Of a DNA stretch of 63,909 nt, positions 30,484-49,959 are shown in pieces. The notes below the pieces were generated by a model. The model worked only from the letters and a program-made list of their open reading frames with translations. It was not told the origin of the DNA and did not search any database. The stretch is from Candidatus Magasanikbacteria bacterium CG11_big_fil_rev_8_21_14_0_20_39_34 (GTDB lineage Bacteria > Patescibacteriota > Patescibacteriia > Magasanikbacterales > UBA922): contig PCWN01000011.1 in the NCBI GenBank assembly GCA_002787355.1, forward strand, positions 121,101 to 185,009, written 5' to 3'. Position 1 is the first letter of the stretch; every line of letters begins with the position of its first letter. A program made the translations under genes and the position numbers.

Positions 30484-30512
30484 TTGACAAAAAAGGTTTT
30501 TTCACATATAAT
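30484..30512 (+). promoter_or_regulatory. Perfect-consensus sigma70 promoter driving the GC-rich island
   Basis: TTGACA (30484-30489), exactly 17 nt of spacer, TATAAT (30507-30512). Confidence 0.75.
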
Positions 30513-30518
30513 AGTGCA

Positions 30519-30990
30519 CATTCCGTTTCTGGGGTGGCTCCAAAGGGAGCCTGAAAAGGGGAGACGTGCTGTTCTCAGAAGATTCGGGGAGGGACCCTGT
30601 TGGGGTTTCGTTGGCTCGCAGGGGCTTGTCGCCCCTCTGGGCCGTTCGGGGGGCTGCTGCAGGTGAGAGGCGGCGACGGACAGCTGCAGCTACGGCTGTA
30701 CCCAACGATCTCTCGGGGGCTGATCGCCGTAGGATCCTTCTGGAGGGAGACTATCTGTGAGCTCCGGACAGGAAAAACGTGGAGTTCTCAGCAGGGGTAG
30801 AAGGGGGCAGCTCGTCATTGCTACCGGGGAGAGGACGTTCTATCGCGTTGCAGATGCACGCGACTTCGCTCCCCCAGGCACCAATATCGAGCAGTTCATC
30901 GGCCTTTCGGTAGCATTCGTCCCGCACCCGCAGAAAAAGCGAGTTGCGCAGAGTGTTCGTCTTCTAAGCAAATAAATACCCACCAGAATG
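30519..30990 (+). ncRNA. Candidate large structured RNA of unrecognised class (GC-rich island 1)
   Basis: Hand-counted 60-nt lines give 57-72% GC, against about 32% in the flanks. Multiple hairpins are present, including a UACG tetraloop hairpin and a possible 5'/3' closing helix. I found no RNase P, tmRNA or SRP signature. Confidence 0.5.
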
Positions 30991-44497: not shown

Positions 44498-44508
44498 TTT
44501 ATGCGGAC

Positions 44509-44537
44509 TTGACTTTTTTGTTCGGTTATTGCACAAT
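44509..44537 (+). promoter_or_regulatory. Promoter of the glyQS T-box leader
   Basis: TTGACT, 17-nt spacer, CACAAT. Confidence 0.45.
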
Positions 44538-44543
44538 GAGAGG

Positions 44544-44694
44544 GTAGGGCATTGATCAGGGGTGGCATCCTGTGAGCCAAAAGACAAAATGACAAGTGAA
44601 ATTTCGGGTGGAACCGCCTCTTTGTAACTTAAATACAAAATGGCCCCGATAGTATTGTGGGAAATACATCTCGTAATACTATCGGGGCTTTTTC
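44544..44694 (+). promoter_or_regulatory. T-box riboswitch leader (glycine-specific) with terminator
   Basis: T-box sequence AAAUUUCGGGUGGAACCGCC (about 44599-44618) with a UGGA bulge. Candidate specifier GGC followed by A in GGUGGCAUCC (about 44561-44570). Terminator is gccccgatagtatt (44643-44656) / aatactatcggggc (44675-44688) plus ttttt. Confidence 0.8.
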
Positions 44695-44725
44695 ATTCTC
44701 TAAATATAATTGTATGGAAGATATC

Positions 44726-46102
44726 ATGCAAAAGATTGTTTCTCTATGTAAAAGGAGGGGATTTGTTTTCCCAGGATCAGAAATTTATGGGGGACTTGCA
44801 AACAGTTGGGATTATGGTCCTCTTGGGGCACAACTAAGAAAAAATATTAAGGATTCATGGTGGCACACGGCAGTTGAGTCTCGTAGAGATGTGGTTGGTA
44901 TTGATGGAGCACTCATGATGAATACAAAGGTATGGGAGGCTTCAGGTCATGTGGCCACATTTAATGACCCTTTGGTAGAAGATACCGTAACAAATAAGCG
45001 TTATCGCGCAGATCATCTTCTTGAAGATTGGCTCAAAAAAAATGGAAAAGAAGGAACCATCGTGGTAGATGGAATGCCTGTTGAGAAAATGGCTGCGTTT
45101 ATTGCGGAAAATAATATTGTGAGTCCGGACGGAAACCCATTAACCGAGCCAAAGCAGTTTAATCTGATGTTTCAAACTTCCATTGGAACTACCAATGATG
45201 AAAAAAATAAGGTCTATCTGCGACCAGAAACGGCACAGGCAATGTTTGTGGATTTTAAAAACGTTTTGGGAACATCACGAAAGCGACTTCCTTTTGGAAT
45301 AGCTCAAATTGGAAAGGCCTTCAGAAATGAAATTACTCCAGGAAATTTTATTTTTCGAACACTGGAATTTGAAGCCATGGAGATAGAATATTTTATTGAA
45401 GAATCTGGATGGGAAGAGCATTTTGAATATTGGGCAGAGTGGATGGAAAAATGGGCTAAAGACATTGGGATTGATACCAATAAGCTTCACAGATATGAAG
45501 TAGAGGGTGATGCGCTTGCACATTACTCCAAAAGAACTTTGGATTTCTTCTTTGACTTTCCATTTGGTTCAAAAGAATTATGGGGACTTGCATACCGTAC
45601 CGACTTTGATCTTACAAACCATGCCAGTCATTCCGGTGAAAAATTAGAGTATGCGGATCCAGATGATAATAGCAAAAAAATTGTTCCACATGTGGTTGAA
45701 CCTGCAATGGGGGTAGATAGAACGCTTCTTGCATTGATGATATCTGCCTATCATGAGGAGCAAGCAGATGGAGAAACACGAATTGTATTAAAGTTTACTC
45801 CAGAGATGGCGCCCGTGCAGGTTGCCGTCCTCCCACTTATGAAGAAGAATGGAATGTCTGAGACGGCAGAGGGAGTATTTGACTCCATTTCAAACGAATT
45901 TCGTTGTGATTTTGATGAGTCTGGAAGTATTGGAAAAAGATATAGAAGACAGGATGAGATAGGTACGCCTCTTTGTATTACTATTGATCATGATACTCTG
46001 CAGGATGGTAGCGTAACTGTACGTGATCGTGATACAATGGAACAAACAAGAGTAAAAAAAGAAGACCTTTTAGATCTTTTGAAAAAGAAACTTTGCTCAT
46101 AG
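44726..46102 (+). CDS. glyQS: Glycine--tRNA ligase, homodimeric (GlyQS) type
   Basis: MQKIVSLCKRRGFVFPGSEIYGGLANSWDYGPLG, FRNEITPGNFIFRTLEFEAMEIEYF, VEPAMGVDR. The start may be 44714 or 44726. Confidence 0.92.
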   Translation: MQKIVSLCKRRGFVFPGSEIYGGLANSWDYGPLGAQLRKNIKDSWWHTAVESRRDVVGIDGALMMNTKVWEASGHVATFNDPLVEDTVTNKRYRADHLLEDWLKKNGKEGTIVVDGMPVEKMAAFIAENNIVSPDGNPLTEPKQFNLMFQTSIGTTNDEKNKVYLRPETAQAMFVDFKNVLGTSRKRLPFGIAQIGKAFRNEITPGNFIFRTLEFEAMEIEYFIEESGWEEHFEYWAEWMEKWAKDIGIDTNKLHRYEVEGDALAHYSKRTLDFFFDFPFGSKELWGLAYRTDFDLTNHASHSGEKLEYADPDDNSKKIVPHVVEPAMGVDRTLLALMISAYHEEQADGETRIVLKFTPEMAPVQVAVLPLMKKNGMSETAEGVFDSISNEFRCDFDESGSIGKRYRRQDEIGTPLCITIDHDTLQDGSVTVRDRDTMEQTRVKKEDLLDLLKKKLCS

Positions 46103-46476
46103 GCAAAGTTCTGGTAGAAATGGTGAAGCCCGATGTTTTTCACCGGGCGGAAGGCGGGATATTGATTTCAGCCGAAGGGATCAGCGTAGCGGCCCTCGAC
46201 GACTCCCTCGCAGTGGGGGGCCGGGCAGCAGATGCCTCCACCTCGTGTGAGACGGGCATCGAGCCTCTGTTCCGGCCACTCGGTTTGGCATGAACCGCAG
46301 ACGGGGGTCGCGCCAAAGAGGCCGGTCGGTCGCTGCCTTTTGGGCAGGAGGCCGGACACGCCCACGAGGAGCGTGATGGCCTTAGGGGGGTGTTGTAGAG
46401 GCTTCGGAACCTTATGCTTCTTCGACGGCAAGAGAACTTCTCCCCAGGATTGAAATCTCCCGAGATAACTCGGGCG
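46100..46476 (-). ncRNA. Candidate structured RNA or small-ORF transcript (GC-rich island 2)
   Basis: Hand-counted lines give 65-70% GC. It is bracketed on the minus strand by a promoter (46482-46510) and a hairpin plus U-tract (ctttgcctatgagcaaag tttcttttt, about 46090-46112). Several hairpins are visible, e.g. cccgag/ctcggg at 46459-46474 and ctgcc/ggcag at 46333-46347. Confidence 0.45.
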
Positions 46477-46481
46477 CCAGC

Positions 46482-46510
46482 AGTCTACATGATTTTCTTC
46501 AAAAAGTCAA
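46482..46510 (-). promoter_or_regulatory. Sigma70-type promoter on the minus strand driving island 2
   Basis: On the minus strand: TTGACT (46510-46505), 17-nt spacer, TAGACT (46487-46482). Confidence 0.55.
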
Positions 46511-46540
46511 CCTCATAAAATTTTAGGATAAAAAATTGTT

Positions 46541-47797
46541 ATGTATAAAACCTATAAATTGAAAAACAATGCCAATGTTCTTTTGATTCCATTGCAAAAT
46601 ACTGATTCCATTACCACACTTATTATGTATCCGGTGGGGTCTCGATATGAACCGGATAAATTACAGGGTGTTTCTCACTACATTGAGCATCTCATGTTTA
46701 AAGGAACAAAAAAAAGAAAAAACACTCTTACGCTCACACGAGAGATTGATAGGTTGGGTGCTTACTATAATGCTTTTACCGGGAAAGAATATACCGGTTA
46801 TTACATAAAAACAGATAAAAAATTTACAAAAATTTCTTTGGATATCCTCTCTGATATGCTTTTCGAATCAAAATTTGATCCCAAAGAAATGGAAAGAGAA
46901 AAAGGACCCATCGTAGAAGAGTTACGAATGTACAAGGATAATCCAATCATGAACATCGATAATATTTTTGAGGACCTTTTGTTTTCTGGATCCTATCTTG
47001 GACGAGATATTGGTGGAACGGAGAAACACGTCATGAGTTTTAAAAGAAAGGATACGCTTGATTACAAAGAAAAATATTATCAGCCAAGTAACATGTATAT
47101 TGTTGTGGCCGGCAATATTGATGAAAAAACAGAAGAATTGATAGAAACATATTTTGGTACACAAAAAGATACCAAAAAACCTTCAGAAAGCTTTAAACCT
47201 TTTTCATTTGGTCCTTCTGTAAAGAAAGAAAGGCTTGTGGTAGAGCACAAAAAAACAGATCAAGTACAGATGATGCTTGGTTATCCGGGATATAAGTTTA
47301 ATGACAATAAAAATGTCATTCTCGATGTGCTCAATACTATTTTGGGAGGATCTATGAGTTCACGACTTTTTATAAAAATTCGTGAACGAATGGGGCTTGC
47401 ATATACCGTGCGTAGTGATTATGACGTTTTCCGAGACACCGGATATACCTATGTTCGGGCTGGATTGGAGCCAAAAAATATTAATAAAGCCATAAAGGCT
47501 ATAAAAGCGGAAATAGAAAAACTTAAAGAAAAAGGCGTGACGGCATCTGAGTTAAAAGATGCCAAAACACACATTCGTGGAAGCATTACCCTTTCTCTTG
47601 AAGATTCCGCTTCACAGGCAAATTGGTATGCCAAACAGTTTATGTTTGGTTCTATAGATACTCCAGAGATGTATTTGAAAAAAATTGAAAAGGTGACCAA
47701 TGAACAGATTATGAAGGTTGCTCAGCAGACATTTAAAGATACTCAGATGCGGGTTTCCATTATTGGAGATGTGAAAAAAGAAGATGTAATATTTTAG
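46541..47797 (+). CDS. M16-family (pitrilysin/insulinase-like) zinc peptidase
   Basis: Inverted zinc motif HxxEH in GVSHYIEHLMFKGT. Two-lobed length of 418 aa. Confidence 0.85.
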   Translation: MYKTYKLKNNANVLLIPLQNTDSITTLIMYPVGSRYEPDKLQGVSHYIEHLMFKGTKKRKNTLTLTREIDRLGAYYNAFTGKEYTGYYIKTDKKFTKISLDILSDMLFESKFDPKEMEREKGPIVEELRMYKDNPIMNIDNIFEDLLFSGSYLGRDIGGTEKHVMSFKRKDTLDYKEKYYQPSNMYIVVAGNIDEKTEELIETYFGTQKDTKKPSESFKPFSFGPSVKKERLVVEHKKTDQVQMMLGYPGYKFNDNKNVILDVLNTILGGSMSSRLFIKIRERMGLAYTVRSDYDVFRDTGYTYVRAGLEPKNINKAIKAIKAEIEKLKEKGVTASELKDAKTHIRGSITLSLEDSASQANWYAKQFMFGSIDTPEMYLKKIEKVTNEQIMKVAQQTFKDTQMRVSIIGDVKKEDVIF

Positions 47798-47799
47798 GT

Positions 47800-49959
47800 A
47801 TGTTTGAAAGAAGACACAATTTTAATGTTCCATTGGGAGATAAAGAACTTGAAAAACGTCATGAACATGATCCAATCTACAGGCAAGCAAGAGACAAAGA
47901 AGAAGGCGAGTATGTCCGAAGATCACCAGAGGAAATAGCAGAGATTAATAGTTTGGCCAGGCAAAAATTCATGGAGCGTCATTTCTCCGGTATTGATGAA
48001 AGTGTAACTGATCAGATGAAACGATATACGCGACGTTTATCAGATTTGGAGTATGCATTTTCTGAGGGTGACGAATATACCAGAGATCAAGTTGCCGGAA
48101 TTTCAAGAGAAGATTATATTGATGTTGGCGATGCTGTTGTTCAGTACCGCAATATTACAACACCCTTGGGGAGGAAGCGATTTGTGGAAACATTTCTTTC
48201 TAAACATTTTTTACAGAATCCTTCACTTTATTTTGACGTCTGTGCCTTTTGTGATTTGTCAGAGGAAGAAGATCTTCCAGAACGAAATGCTGCTTTAGAA
48301 TTCAAGAAGGCGCTAGGAGAGAATGTTTCTGATTTTGTGGTGAAGCAGAAGATATCTGTTACCGATGTTCCAGAAGGGAGTGTAGATAGGTGGATTGATT
48401 TTGCGAGTGTTTTACCGGATGATAAGGAAGTGGAAACATATATTAATGCAATATTATCAAGTTTTTTAGAGAAAGAAAGAGATCCTGCATCGTTTATGAA
48501 GGCACTTGCTTTTCTTACCACCGAATATACAGCTTCCTATACTCACCCATATAGAATTAAATTTTTACACAGATTTTTTTCCAAAGAAATAAATAAACCA
48601 TCGGGGGCATTTATTGACAAATATATTGGGGCTTTATTTTCAAAGGATGATGCTGTTGTTGCAGAAGCACTGCATGCCGAATTTGCAGTATCATTAATGG
48701 AATATTGTGCAAAACTTTATGAAGATGATCCAAGGACACAGGAGCTATTATCTTTACAGAAAACTGCGGCTCAGAAAGTGAGTGTGGAGATTGAAAAAAT
48801 AATTGAAAAACAAGAGAGAGAAGTTGAAACGGCTGCAGTGAGTGGTCACAAGCCAAGAAAGTTCACAAAAATAAAAAAAAGAAAGGGGCTCTCGAGCACT
48901 GCACAAGGAATTGCTGTTGAGATAACAAAATCAGAGGCATCACCTCGTATTCGGGGTATGTGGGCAGTTTTAGAACATTCTATTCGACCTGAAGTTGATG
49001 CTCGTGGTTCTTACTCTTTTCCAGGAGCTTTGTCATGTGATGCTCGTTATGCCGGAGAACTTATTCGACTTGCTACTGAAGCAAAGATAAACATTCCCGT
49101 TTTTTTGGGAAGTGAACAAGAAGAAGTTTCTTTTTTTGATGGAAAAAAATTAGTAATCCTTCCTATTGATGAGCCACGTCTTTTAGCAACGTCTCGAAAT
49201 GTCATTCATTCAGAAGGTGAACATGAGCAAGCAGATGAATTGATGTTTGAAACCTTTTCAAATACACTTGATATATGGGGGGATGAAAAACTGAAAAAGC
49301 TTGAGAAAAGAGTTTCAGAACTCAAACAGGAAATTCGCTCTGATTTAAAATACCTGGTGAATCCTCGAGGTGATAAAGTTATTATTGAAGATAACGTTCT
49401 TAATAAGGCAGGCTTAAAATCCGTAACTTTCAAAAGAACCAATGGTGGAGGTTACTTCGATTTAGATGTGGATGTAGAAGTGGGACGTTTTACTATTTCG
49501 TGCCAACTCAAAAATGATGATATGCATAGTTTTGCATTGTTTAGTAGAAGAAACGGAAAGGGGATGTCCATTTCCAGGAGAACAGAAGCAATTATTTCAG
49601 AAATTGTTTTAAGTCAACTTCGAGTACTGCTATGTGAAAATGTTCCTCTTCGTGGTACGGATACGGATTCAGAAGGTGGTGTAGAACATACAAGACCAAA
49701 GACACGGAGAGCTCACTTTCGTAAACTCCCTTCTGGGAGTGGTTTTACCGAGTCACAGCGACAAAAGGTTCTCTTTGAAACCGATAACGATATAGACTTG
49801 GCGCTTGTGAATGCGCAGCTTCAGTTGGGACCAGAGGATGGCCAAAAAACGTTTGTAACCGAAGGAGTCTGGGAAACTCTGGACGCTTCTGGAAATGATC
49901 TTCCACCATTGGAGAGAAGTGTTGCCAATGGTTCAAAAATTGCAGCAATTGCCGCTTAG
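47800..49959 (+). CDS. Large cytoplasmic hypothetical protein (719 aa), no recognisable domain
   Basis: Long uninterrupted ORF with composition typical of the host. ATG lies 2 nt after the M16 peptidase stop. No signal peptide or TM segment. Confidence 0.6.
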   Translation: MFERRHNFNVPLGDKELEKRHEHDPIYRQARDKEEGEYVRRSPEEIAEINSLARQKFMERHFSGIDESVTDQMKRYTRRLSDLEYAFSEGDEYTRDQVAGISREDYIDVGDAVVQYRNITTPLGRKRFVETFLSKHFLQNPSLYFDVCAFCDLSEEEDLPERNAALEFKKALGENVSDFVVKQKISVTDVPEGSVDRWIDFASVLPDDKEVETYINAILSSFLEKERDPASFMKALAFLTTEYTASYTHPYRIKFLHRFFSKEINKPSGAFIDKYIGALFSKDDAVVAEALHAEFAVSLMEYCAKLYEDDPRTQELLSLQKTAAQKVSVEIEKIIEKQEREVETAAVSGHKPRKFTKIKKRKGLSSTAQGIAVEITKSEASPRIRGMWAVLEHSIRPEVDARGSYSFPGALSCDARYAGELIRLATEAKINIPVFLGSEQEEVSFFDGKKLVILPIDEPRLLATSRNVIHSEGEHEQADELMFETFSNTLDIWGDEKLKKLEKRVSELKQEIRSDLKYLVNPRGDKVIIEDNVLNKAGLKSVTFKRTNGGGYFDLDVDVEVGRFTISCQLKNDDMHSFALFSRRNGKGMSISRRTEAIISEIVLSQLRVLLCENVPLRGTDTDSEGGVEHTRPKTRRAHFRKLPSGSGFTESQRQKVLFETDNDIDLALVNAQLQLGPEDGQKTFVTEGVWETLDASGNDLPPLERSVANGSKIAAIAA

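Follow-up and report, generated by a model that had tools for sequence, protein, structure and literature searches.

What does a short GC-rich island between two protein genes of an AT-rich genome encode? We addressed this question for a 63,909-nucleotide (nt) stretch of contig PCWN01000011.1, referred to here in its entirety as the window, which its M16 peptidase assigns to Candidatus Magasanikbacteria (Candidate Phyla Radiation, CPR/Patescibacteria). The island, termed island 2, lies between glyS (glyQS), encoding glycyl-tRNA synthetase (GlyRS), and the M16 peptidase gene. A preliminary description of this DNA, made from the sequence alone, had viewed it as a minus-strand unit specifying a novel, structured non-coding RNA. 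We conclude instead, at a probability of roughly 0.85, that island 2 is a small, unannotated protein-coding gene on the minus strand, an assessment that is based on sequence comparison and is limited by the availability of a single homologue lineage. The gene is most likely fast-evolving, and its predicted product carries four cysteines in a zinc-ribbon-like arrangement.

The GC content of positions 46150-46449 was 60-68%, compared to 24-45% in the flanks (100-nt windows). In 150-nt windows island 2 peaked at 68.7% GC, relative to an average of 38.3% over the whole window, and only three stretches exceeded 55%: 30501-30975 (island 1), 46101-46500 (island 2) and a tRNA pair at 51.7 kb. The GC-rich island noted between glyQS and the M16 gene was thus confirmed at both window sizes. 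Its peak matched an 87-codon open reading frame (ORF), with 66% GC in the ORF as compared to 52% and 50% in the predicted 5' and 3' untranslated regions (UTRs), respectively. The high GC content is due in part to a product rich in Gly, Pro, Arg, Ala and Cys, which acts through codon positions 1 and 2, and in part to a foreign-like third codon position that the L080 homologue described below lacks. Ten contigs that differ in sample and assembler (JGI, ENA, Logan) all carry island 2 at 100% identity across 436 nt, indicating that it is not an assembly chimera, a concern that the preliminary description had raised.

A homologous open reading frame in a second lineage

The closest relative for which DNA upstream of the M16 gene could be obtained was that represented by L080, L081 and L082, whose M16 protein (P0004) is 73% identical to that of the window. 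Immediately upstream of M16, the L080 locus contains a 357-nt gap, inside which lies a minus-strand ORF of 71 codons (MSASALKPRFQLPRGTFTSKPPRTGTEEFQCDSCQEVWPRDQVESHLTRGGRFVCPDIECDGTLIDPWLDD). BLASTP aligned the 87-residue product of the window with this ORF at E = 9e-14, with 34% identity over 70 residues. Invariant in both proteins is the pattern C-x-S-C-Q-x2-W-P-x7-L-T-R-G-G-x3-C-P-x3-C-x-G, all four cysteines included. When the 87-residue ORF was compared by tblastn with all fetched loci, the L080 lineage alone matched (E = 4e-10; composition-corrected E = 2-4e-9). The Smith-Waterman score was 117, compared to 25 +/- 4.7 (maximum 52) when one of the proteins was shuffled 5000 times; among the 36 frame pairs between the two loci, only the minus-strand ORF pair scored high (129), while the exact antisense pair reached 70 and the others 20-47. 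The match is therefore not explained by composition. A degenerate DNA pattern of the motif matched, among 83 loci, only the window's own copies and L080/L081.

The pattern of divergence between the two ORFs was that expected of coding sequence. No DNA-level similarity between the loci was detected by blastn (best E = 0.23, in the wrong orientation), whereas identity at codon positions 1, 2 and 3 was 59, 54 and 29%, respectively, and different codons encode 16 of the 25 identical residues. A Fisher test of positions 1 and 2 against position 3 gave p = 0.0004, with the caveat that the alignment of the proteins served as guide for that of the codons. Protein-level conservation of the 87-codon ORF, which the preliminary description had listed among the findings contrary to its RNA proposal, is thus what these comparisons revealed.

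The two ORFs also share their layout, namely a TTG start, a G-rich Shine-Dalgarno-like site, an equivalent stop and a terminator-like hairpin just downstream. Their start signals are alike, the L080 ORF having GGGGGGGG 5 nt ahead of its TTG codon (contexts AUCCCAGGGGGG versus AUCCUGGGGAG). In both lineages the ORF is on the minus strand immediately upstream of M16, divergent from it, with the two genes sharing an upstream region of ~60-110 nt.

Searches for RNA families

At gathering thresholds, Rfam 15 identified five tRNAs and an L10 leader in the whole window, and nothing in island 2. With permissive filters (E <= 10) on positions 45900-46700, only chance matches to small nucleolar and small RNAs were returned (14-21 bits, best E = 2.8). 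RNase P, transfer-messenger RNA (tmRNA), signal recognition particle (SRP) RNA and 6S RNA had no covariance-model match in this interval even at E <= 10, and ARAGORN found no tmRNA in island 2. The absence of RNase P, tmRNA and SRP RNA noted in the preliminary description was thereby upheld. The full-Rfam search that it had proposed for island 2 matched no family even at the permissive cutoff. Island 2 resembles these housekeeping RNAs in being a GC-rich stretch of a few hundred nt that lies between protein genes and carries promoter-like and terminator-like sites of its own; it differs from them in lacking a covariance-model match, a tmRNA call and extra stability of its core, and in being conserved at the protein level.

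An RNase P-like reading of the pair CGAAGCCUC ... GGAACAGAGGCUCG was also considered, given its likeness to the P4 helix with the conserved CR-I/CR-V. This likeness was rejected: the 3' strand would sit centrally in the RNA, and none of the Rfam RNase P models matched at E <= 10.

The predicted product and its likeness to known small proteins

The 87-residue product (~9.3 kDa) combines a basic, Pro/Lys/Arg-rich N-terminal part (pI 12.0) with an acidic, Cys-rich C-terminal part (pI 5.0); the L080 protein is built alike, with a basic N-terminal part of pI 10.9 and an acidic Cys part of pI 4.1. The cysteines are spaced C45-x2-C48, 20 residues, C69-P-x3-C74, with the motifs CGSC and CPAPHCEG, and all four are invariant in the pairwise alignment of the two proteins (A1). 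As judged from the sequence, this spacing is that of a zinc ribbon or Cys4 zinc finger.

Database searches assigned the protein to no family. Pfam had no match for the window protein, and for the L080 copy only sub-threshold zinc-finger matches of 10-13 bits. Nothing in NCBIfam exceeded its threshold, the best being NF041915 (the HVO_2901 zinc-finger family) at 17.1 bits against a cutoff of 80, and this for the L080 copy only. PHROGs, PADLOC and PDB sequences returned nothing significant (PDB profile search, best E = 0.3). A word-index protein search with the 87-residue ORF found nothing, and metagenome scans (by alignment and by degenerate motif pattern) and a viral scan (by pattern) were empty; the metagenome negative is weak, because the JGI contig of the window was itself not recovered from that collection.

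Zinc-binding small ribosomal proteins (bL31, bL32, bL33, bL36 and Z-type bS14) are likewise small and basic-tailed, and their four cysteines also form two pairs. The window protein differs from them in having no Pfam or NCBIfam match to any of them and in the acidic character of its Cys domain, and its gene is missing from most relatives, which rules out a core ribosomal protein.

A closer likeness is to the small one-domain zinc-finger microproteins of Haloferax volcanii, for which the C(P)XCG motif has been defined (PMC11241148; see also PMC6562870), and to the HVO_2901 family NF041915. Common to both are a length of 70-90 residues and a single domain with two Cys pairs ~20 residues apart, the second starting C-P; the haloarchaeal genes, too, are often overlooked by annotation and lineage-restricted, and their usual function is regulatory or accessory, via binding of nucleic acid or protein. 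However, the second knuckle here is C-P-x3-C-x-G rather than C-P-x-C-G, which places the protein outside the C(P)XCG group, the host is a CPR bacterium rather than a haloarchaeon, and the window protein has a long basic N-terminal tail. The predicted product is best regarded as a new microprotein of the zinc-ribbon kind that belongs to no described family.

We propose the following model for the expression and action of this gene. Transcription would start near 46475 from the TTGACT/TAGACT promoter-like site, translation would begin at the TTG codon at 46431 behind the GGGGAG ribosome-binding site, and transcription would stop at the hairpin overlapping the end of glyS. The resulting protein of 87 residues would comprise an N-terminal tail, disordered and strongly basic, and after it an acidic domain of ~40 residues. 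There, the four conserved cysteines (CxxC, 20 residues, CPxxxC) would most likely coordinate a single zinc ion as a pair of zinc-ribbon-like knuckles. Together, basic tail and zinc ribbon would most likely bind nucleic acid or a partner protein, making the product a small regulatory or accessory factor. Our most specific guess, a weak one, is that it may exert a regulatory role at the shared M16 upstream region, since in both lineages the gene and the M16 operon diverge from a common upstream region.

We also considered whether the gene encodes the precursor of a ribosomally synthesized and post-translationally modified peptide (RiPP) beside the M16 protease. This candidate was rejected: a conserved C-terminal Cys domain with a variable N-terminus inverts the arrangement usual in RiPPs, modifying enzymes are not encoded next to the gene, and the neighbouring M16 gene is of housekeeping character and conserved, ~70 relatives having it but not the small gene.

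Distribution among relatives and codon composition

The gene order RRF-(Dtd)-GlyRS-M16 is kept in ~60 genomes of Magasanikbacteria and Uhrbacteria. In most relatives from GTDB the gap between glyS and M16 is only ~40-100 nt, and blastn of island 2 against the syntenic locus of 67 GTDB relatives found no similarity; GC-rich stretches in the relatives' loci resolved as tRNAs, other ORFs or the glyS leader. The junction itself is variable, with a TMEM43-like gene in L088 and a gene designated X in L011 and L080; in L011, gene X (the left neighbour of the small gene in L080) directly precedes M16 without the small gene. Taken together, the short gaps, the lack of blastn similarity and the variable junction indicate that island 2 is a lineage-restricted insert.

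In the closest strain, whose M16 protein (P0003) is 92% identical to that of the window, the available contigs (L078, 1-42; L079, 1-33) end 33-42 nt upstream of M16 and leave the island unread. A GlyRS of ~92% identity, sought in order to reach this strain from the other side, was not found. These two contigs are independent assemblies, one of them from the same JGI sample as L001, and both break just inside the conserved 'aaaaagtcaac' (-35) region. Island 2 may be identical between co-occurring strains, collapsing the assembly graph at these breaks.

GC content at codon positions 1, 2 and 3 was 0.67, 0.55 and 0.74 in the window ORF. The third-position value (GC3) compares with 0.32 +/- 0.08 (maximum 0.54) for the long ORFs of the host. 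The L080 copy had values of 0.61, 0.52 and 0.42, compared to 0.49, 0.33 and 0.35 for the M16 gene of its host. Amino-acid composition accounts for GC at positions 1 and 2 in both copies, but not for the foreign-like GC3 of the window copy, which could stem from a xenologue that recently replaced the gene or from mutational bias at the locus. Selection for mRNA structure is not supported as a cause, since sequences with permuted synonymous codons are equally stable (see below).

Weighing the alternative explanations

Several observations weigh against the conclusion that island 2 is a zinc-ribbon protein gene. No Pfam, NCBIfam, PHROGs, PADLOC or PDB family matched, and AlphaFold2, run on the single sequence without an alignment, gave an uninformative predicted local distance difference test score of 52, whether for the entire protein or for its C-terminal 47 residues alone, too low to confirm the predicted zinc-ribbon fold. 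The N-terminal 22 residues are without counterpart in the L080 homologue, so that the true start could be an internal GTG. The exact 87-residue sequence is absent from 15 billion predicted proteins and no gene caller predicted the ORF, while a full HMMER scan of 1.84 billion representatives returned three weak matches, two of which, upon inspection, were internally repetitive proteins. Moreover, ~70 other relatives (L084-L092, nine that were checked, among them) are without such a gene at the junction, and with one independent homologue lineage only, conservation amounts to a single pairwise comparison. Finally, the GC3 of 0.74 is more than 5 standard deviations above that of the host genes and is not common to the homologue (0.42), which is odd for vertical inheritance.

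A novel structured non-coding RNA of ~380 nt on the minus strand, with the ORF incidental to GC-rich sequence, would fit a GC island with its own promoter-like and terminator-like sites in an AT-rich genome, the absence of a minus-strand gene from pipeline calls and the length of the ORF, which alone is not significant (an equally long open frame occurs in 20% of island shuffles). It would also fit the folding of the 401-nt minus strand, with z = -3.2 versus dinucleotide shuffles as compared to -1.7 for the plus strand. However, this signal vanishes when synonymous codons are permuted with protein and codon set fixed (z = +0.11 for the transcript and -0.29 for the ORF), indicating that it reflects the UTR and terminator hairpins and mixed composition. 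The 264-nt ORF core gave z = -1.1, with 25 of 200 shuffles folding equally well, so that its small hairpins are no more than chance in GC-rich sequence. Whereas the ten same-species copies are 100% identical, the L080 homologue has neither alignable nucleotide similarity nor a fold signal (z = -0.63 for its locus), yet it keeps the amino-acid motif with third positions randomised. With no Rfam family matching as well, we regard the RNA proposed by the preliminary description as very improbable. Still less credible is a real gene on the plus strand, either the 57-residue ORF at 46120-46293, called by the JGI pipeline in some contigs, or the 73-residue ORF at 46232-46453. Although the former is present in the protein collection as P0001, on 7 contigs, and the antisense of the conserved core is also similar between the loci (tblastx E = 3e-6; Smith-Waterman 70), P0001 is a singleton cluster in a frame that differs from that of the antisense similarity. 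The codon-aligned antisense frame is most conserved at its third position (29/54/59%), contrary to what coding sequence would show; the two loci do not have collinear plus-strand ORFs, the similar stretch lying at residues 2-25 versus 42-65; and no plus-strand promoter or ribosome-binding site was seen.

That island 2 is high-GC DNA recently acquired from elsewhere (for instance, what remains of a mobile element or phage), with a decaying or non-functional passenger ORF, inserted at a hotspot before M16 that was filled twice with related cargo, is distinctly improbable. Such an origin is suggested by the GC3 of the window copy, by the absence of the gene from ~70 relatives with their mostly short gaps, by the other inserts at the junction (the TMEM43-like gene and gene X) and by the insertion of a 719-residue orphan gene downstream of M16 in the window genome. 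The frame is nonetheless intact in both lineages, and the cysteines, the motif residues and the layout of start, stop and terminator are conserved, which argues for purifying selection; the near-host GC3 of the L080 copy (0.42 versus 0.35) points to long residence. A mobile element was, in addition, rejected as a candidate: island 2 has no flanking direct or inverted (terminal) repeats of note and no adjoining integrase or transposase gene, and phage collections, plasmid collections and viral contigs gave no match by blastn or tblastn. Unlikely, too, is a more elaborate account, according to which the gene would belong to an orphan microprotein family, found so far in two Magasanikbacteria lineages and always divergent before the M16 operon. 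The window copy would be a recently exchanged, possibly phage- or episome-borne zinc-ribbon regulator (hence its strongly foreign GC3), or alternatively the GC-rich mRNA would have a second, RNA-level role, e.g. interfering with convergent glyS transcription via the shared terminator.

If island 2 is, as we conclude, a small protein-coding gene, one candidate novel large RNA would be struck off the list, and the CPR gene inventory would gain one unannotated, family-less Cys4 microprotein. The case illustrates a general trap in AT-rich CPR genomes, where a short gene for a protein rich in Gly, Pro, Arg and Cys can present itself as a GC-rich island that is studded with hairpins and has its own promoter and terminator; gene callers overlook such genes or place them on the wrong strand. 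Among Magasanikbacteria, the case also singles out the M16 upstream junction as a site of variation. The result is of modest interest, mainly to small-protein specialists, and opens no long-standing question.

Signals and parts of the minus-strand unit

Features of the locus are summarized in Table 1. The preliminary description had portrayed island 2 as a self-contained minus-strand unit of ~380 nt with promoter-like and terminator-like signals of its own, and this part of it is supported by the predicted signals. The promoter-like site was recovered by a consensus scan, a terminator scan found the hairpin at the end of glyS, its stop codon included, and the small hairpins and the gaggccgg repeat could all be read from the sequence where they had been placed.

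Table 1. Coordinates of island 2 features and neighbouring genes (positions in the window)
Feature	Position	Strand	Basis and remarks
glyS, class-II glycyl-tRNA synthetase	ORF 44657-46102; callers begin at 44714	+	Left neighbour of island 2
glyS stop codon	46100-46102	+	
M16 peptidase gene	46541-47797	+	Right neighbour of island 2
Promoter-like site TTGACT-17-TAGACT	46482..46510	-	Consensus scan, 9/12 matches; inside the 110-nt divergent region common to the M16 gene
Predicted 5' UTR	46432..46475	-	Read from sequence; 52% GC
6-bp hairpin cccgag/ctcggg	46459-46474		In predicted 5' UTR, just past predicted transcription start
Shine-Dalgarno-like GGGGAG	46440-46445	-	8 nt ahead of the TTG start codon
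87-codon ORF and stop	46168..46431	-	TTG start at 46431; stop 46168-46170
Conserved core, residues 45-76	46204..46299	-	C-G-S-C-Q-x2-W-P-x7-L-T-R-G-G-x3-C-P-x3-C-x-G; invariant columns of two-sequence alignment A1
Predicted 3' UTR	46112..46167	-	7-bp hairpin CCCGGUG-AAAAA-CAUCGGG; 50% GC
Terminator-like hairpin (9 pairs) and T-rich tail CTTTTTCAAA	46078..46111; hairpin 46111-46088	-	Overlaps last codons and stop codon of convergent glyS
Small hairpin ctgcc/ggcag	46333-46347		
Direct repeat gaggccgg	46318, 46348		
Small hairpin cacgc/gcgtg	46357-46375		
Small hairpin gatgcc/ggcatc	46231-46260		

Additional observations

Downstream of M16, an ORF of 719 residues occupies positions 47800-49959 (plus strand) between the M16 and TIM genes. 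It is of host-like GC content and had no Pfam, PADLOC or meaningful PHROGs match. In L080, L086, L087, L088 and L090 the M16 gene is directly followed by TIM. The ORF is a lineage-specific insert, the second to adjoin M16.

GC-rich stretches near glyS or M16 were also observed in other relatives, at 2040-2490 in L024, 210-650 in L025, 1330-2330 in L053 and 8400-9250 in L033. These appear to be ORFs of foreign-like composition, and small GC-rich inserts seem to be common around the glyS/M16 locus in Magasanikbacteria.

Island 1 (30486-30990, plus strand) reaches 67% GC and lies behind a perfect TTGACA-17-TATAAT at 30486-30513. The possibility raised earlier that the two islands are paralogues found no support, since island 1 (30514-30990, plus) and island 2 (46085-46482, minus) lack sequence similarity in either orientation, the best local alignment giving z = 1.1 in the same orientation and 0.5 for the reverse complement versus shuffles. 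Island 1 had no Rfam match, and tblastx found no match in any fetched locus. It contains two ORFs, 30566-30760 (64 residues) and 30757-30975 (72 residues), joined by a GTGA start/stop overlap, with GGAGGGAG 7 nt upstream of the second. Pfam, NCBIfam and PHROGs returned nothing significant for these ORFs, and a viral-contig scan with the 72-residue ORF found no relative. By analogy with island 2, island 1 may also consist of small protein genes.

The leader of glyS (44498-44713, plus strand) carries a T-box-like GGGTGGAACCGCC at 44606-44618 and a strong terminator hairpin at 44643-44698. The Rfam T-box model did not match this leader at gathering thresholds or at E <= 1. The UGGA of the leader would pair with the UCCA end of tRNA-Gly, and the same T-box-like motif and a terminator, with a stem-I-like segment containing GGC, also precede glyS in several Magasanikbacteria relatives (L016, ~1900-2110; L018, ~2090-2270; L025, ~820-1000; L028, ~740-925; L052, ~2170-2350). 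The glyS leader may represent a divergent or shortened glycine T-box of CPR bacteria.

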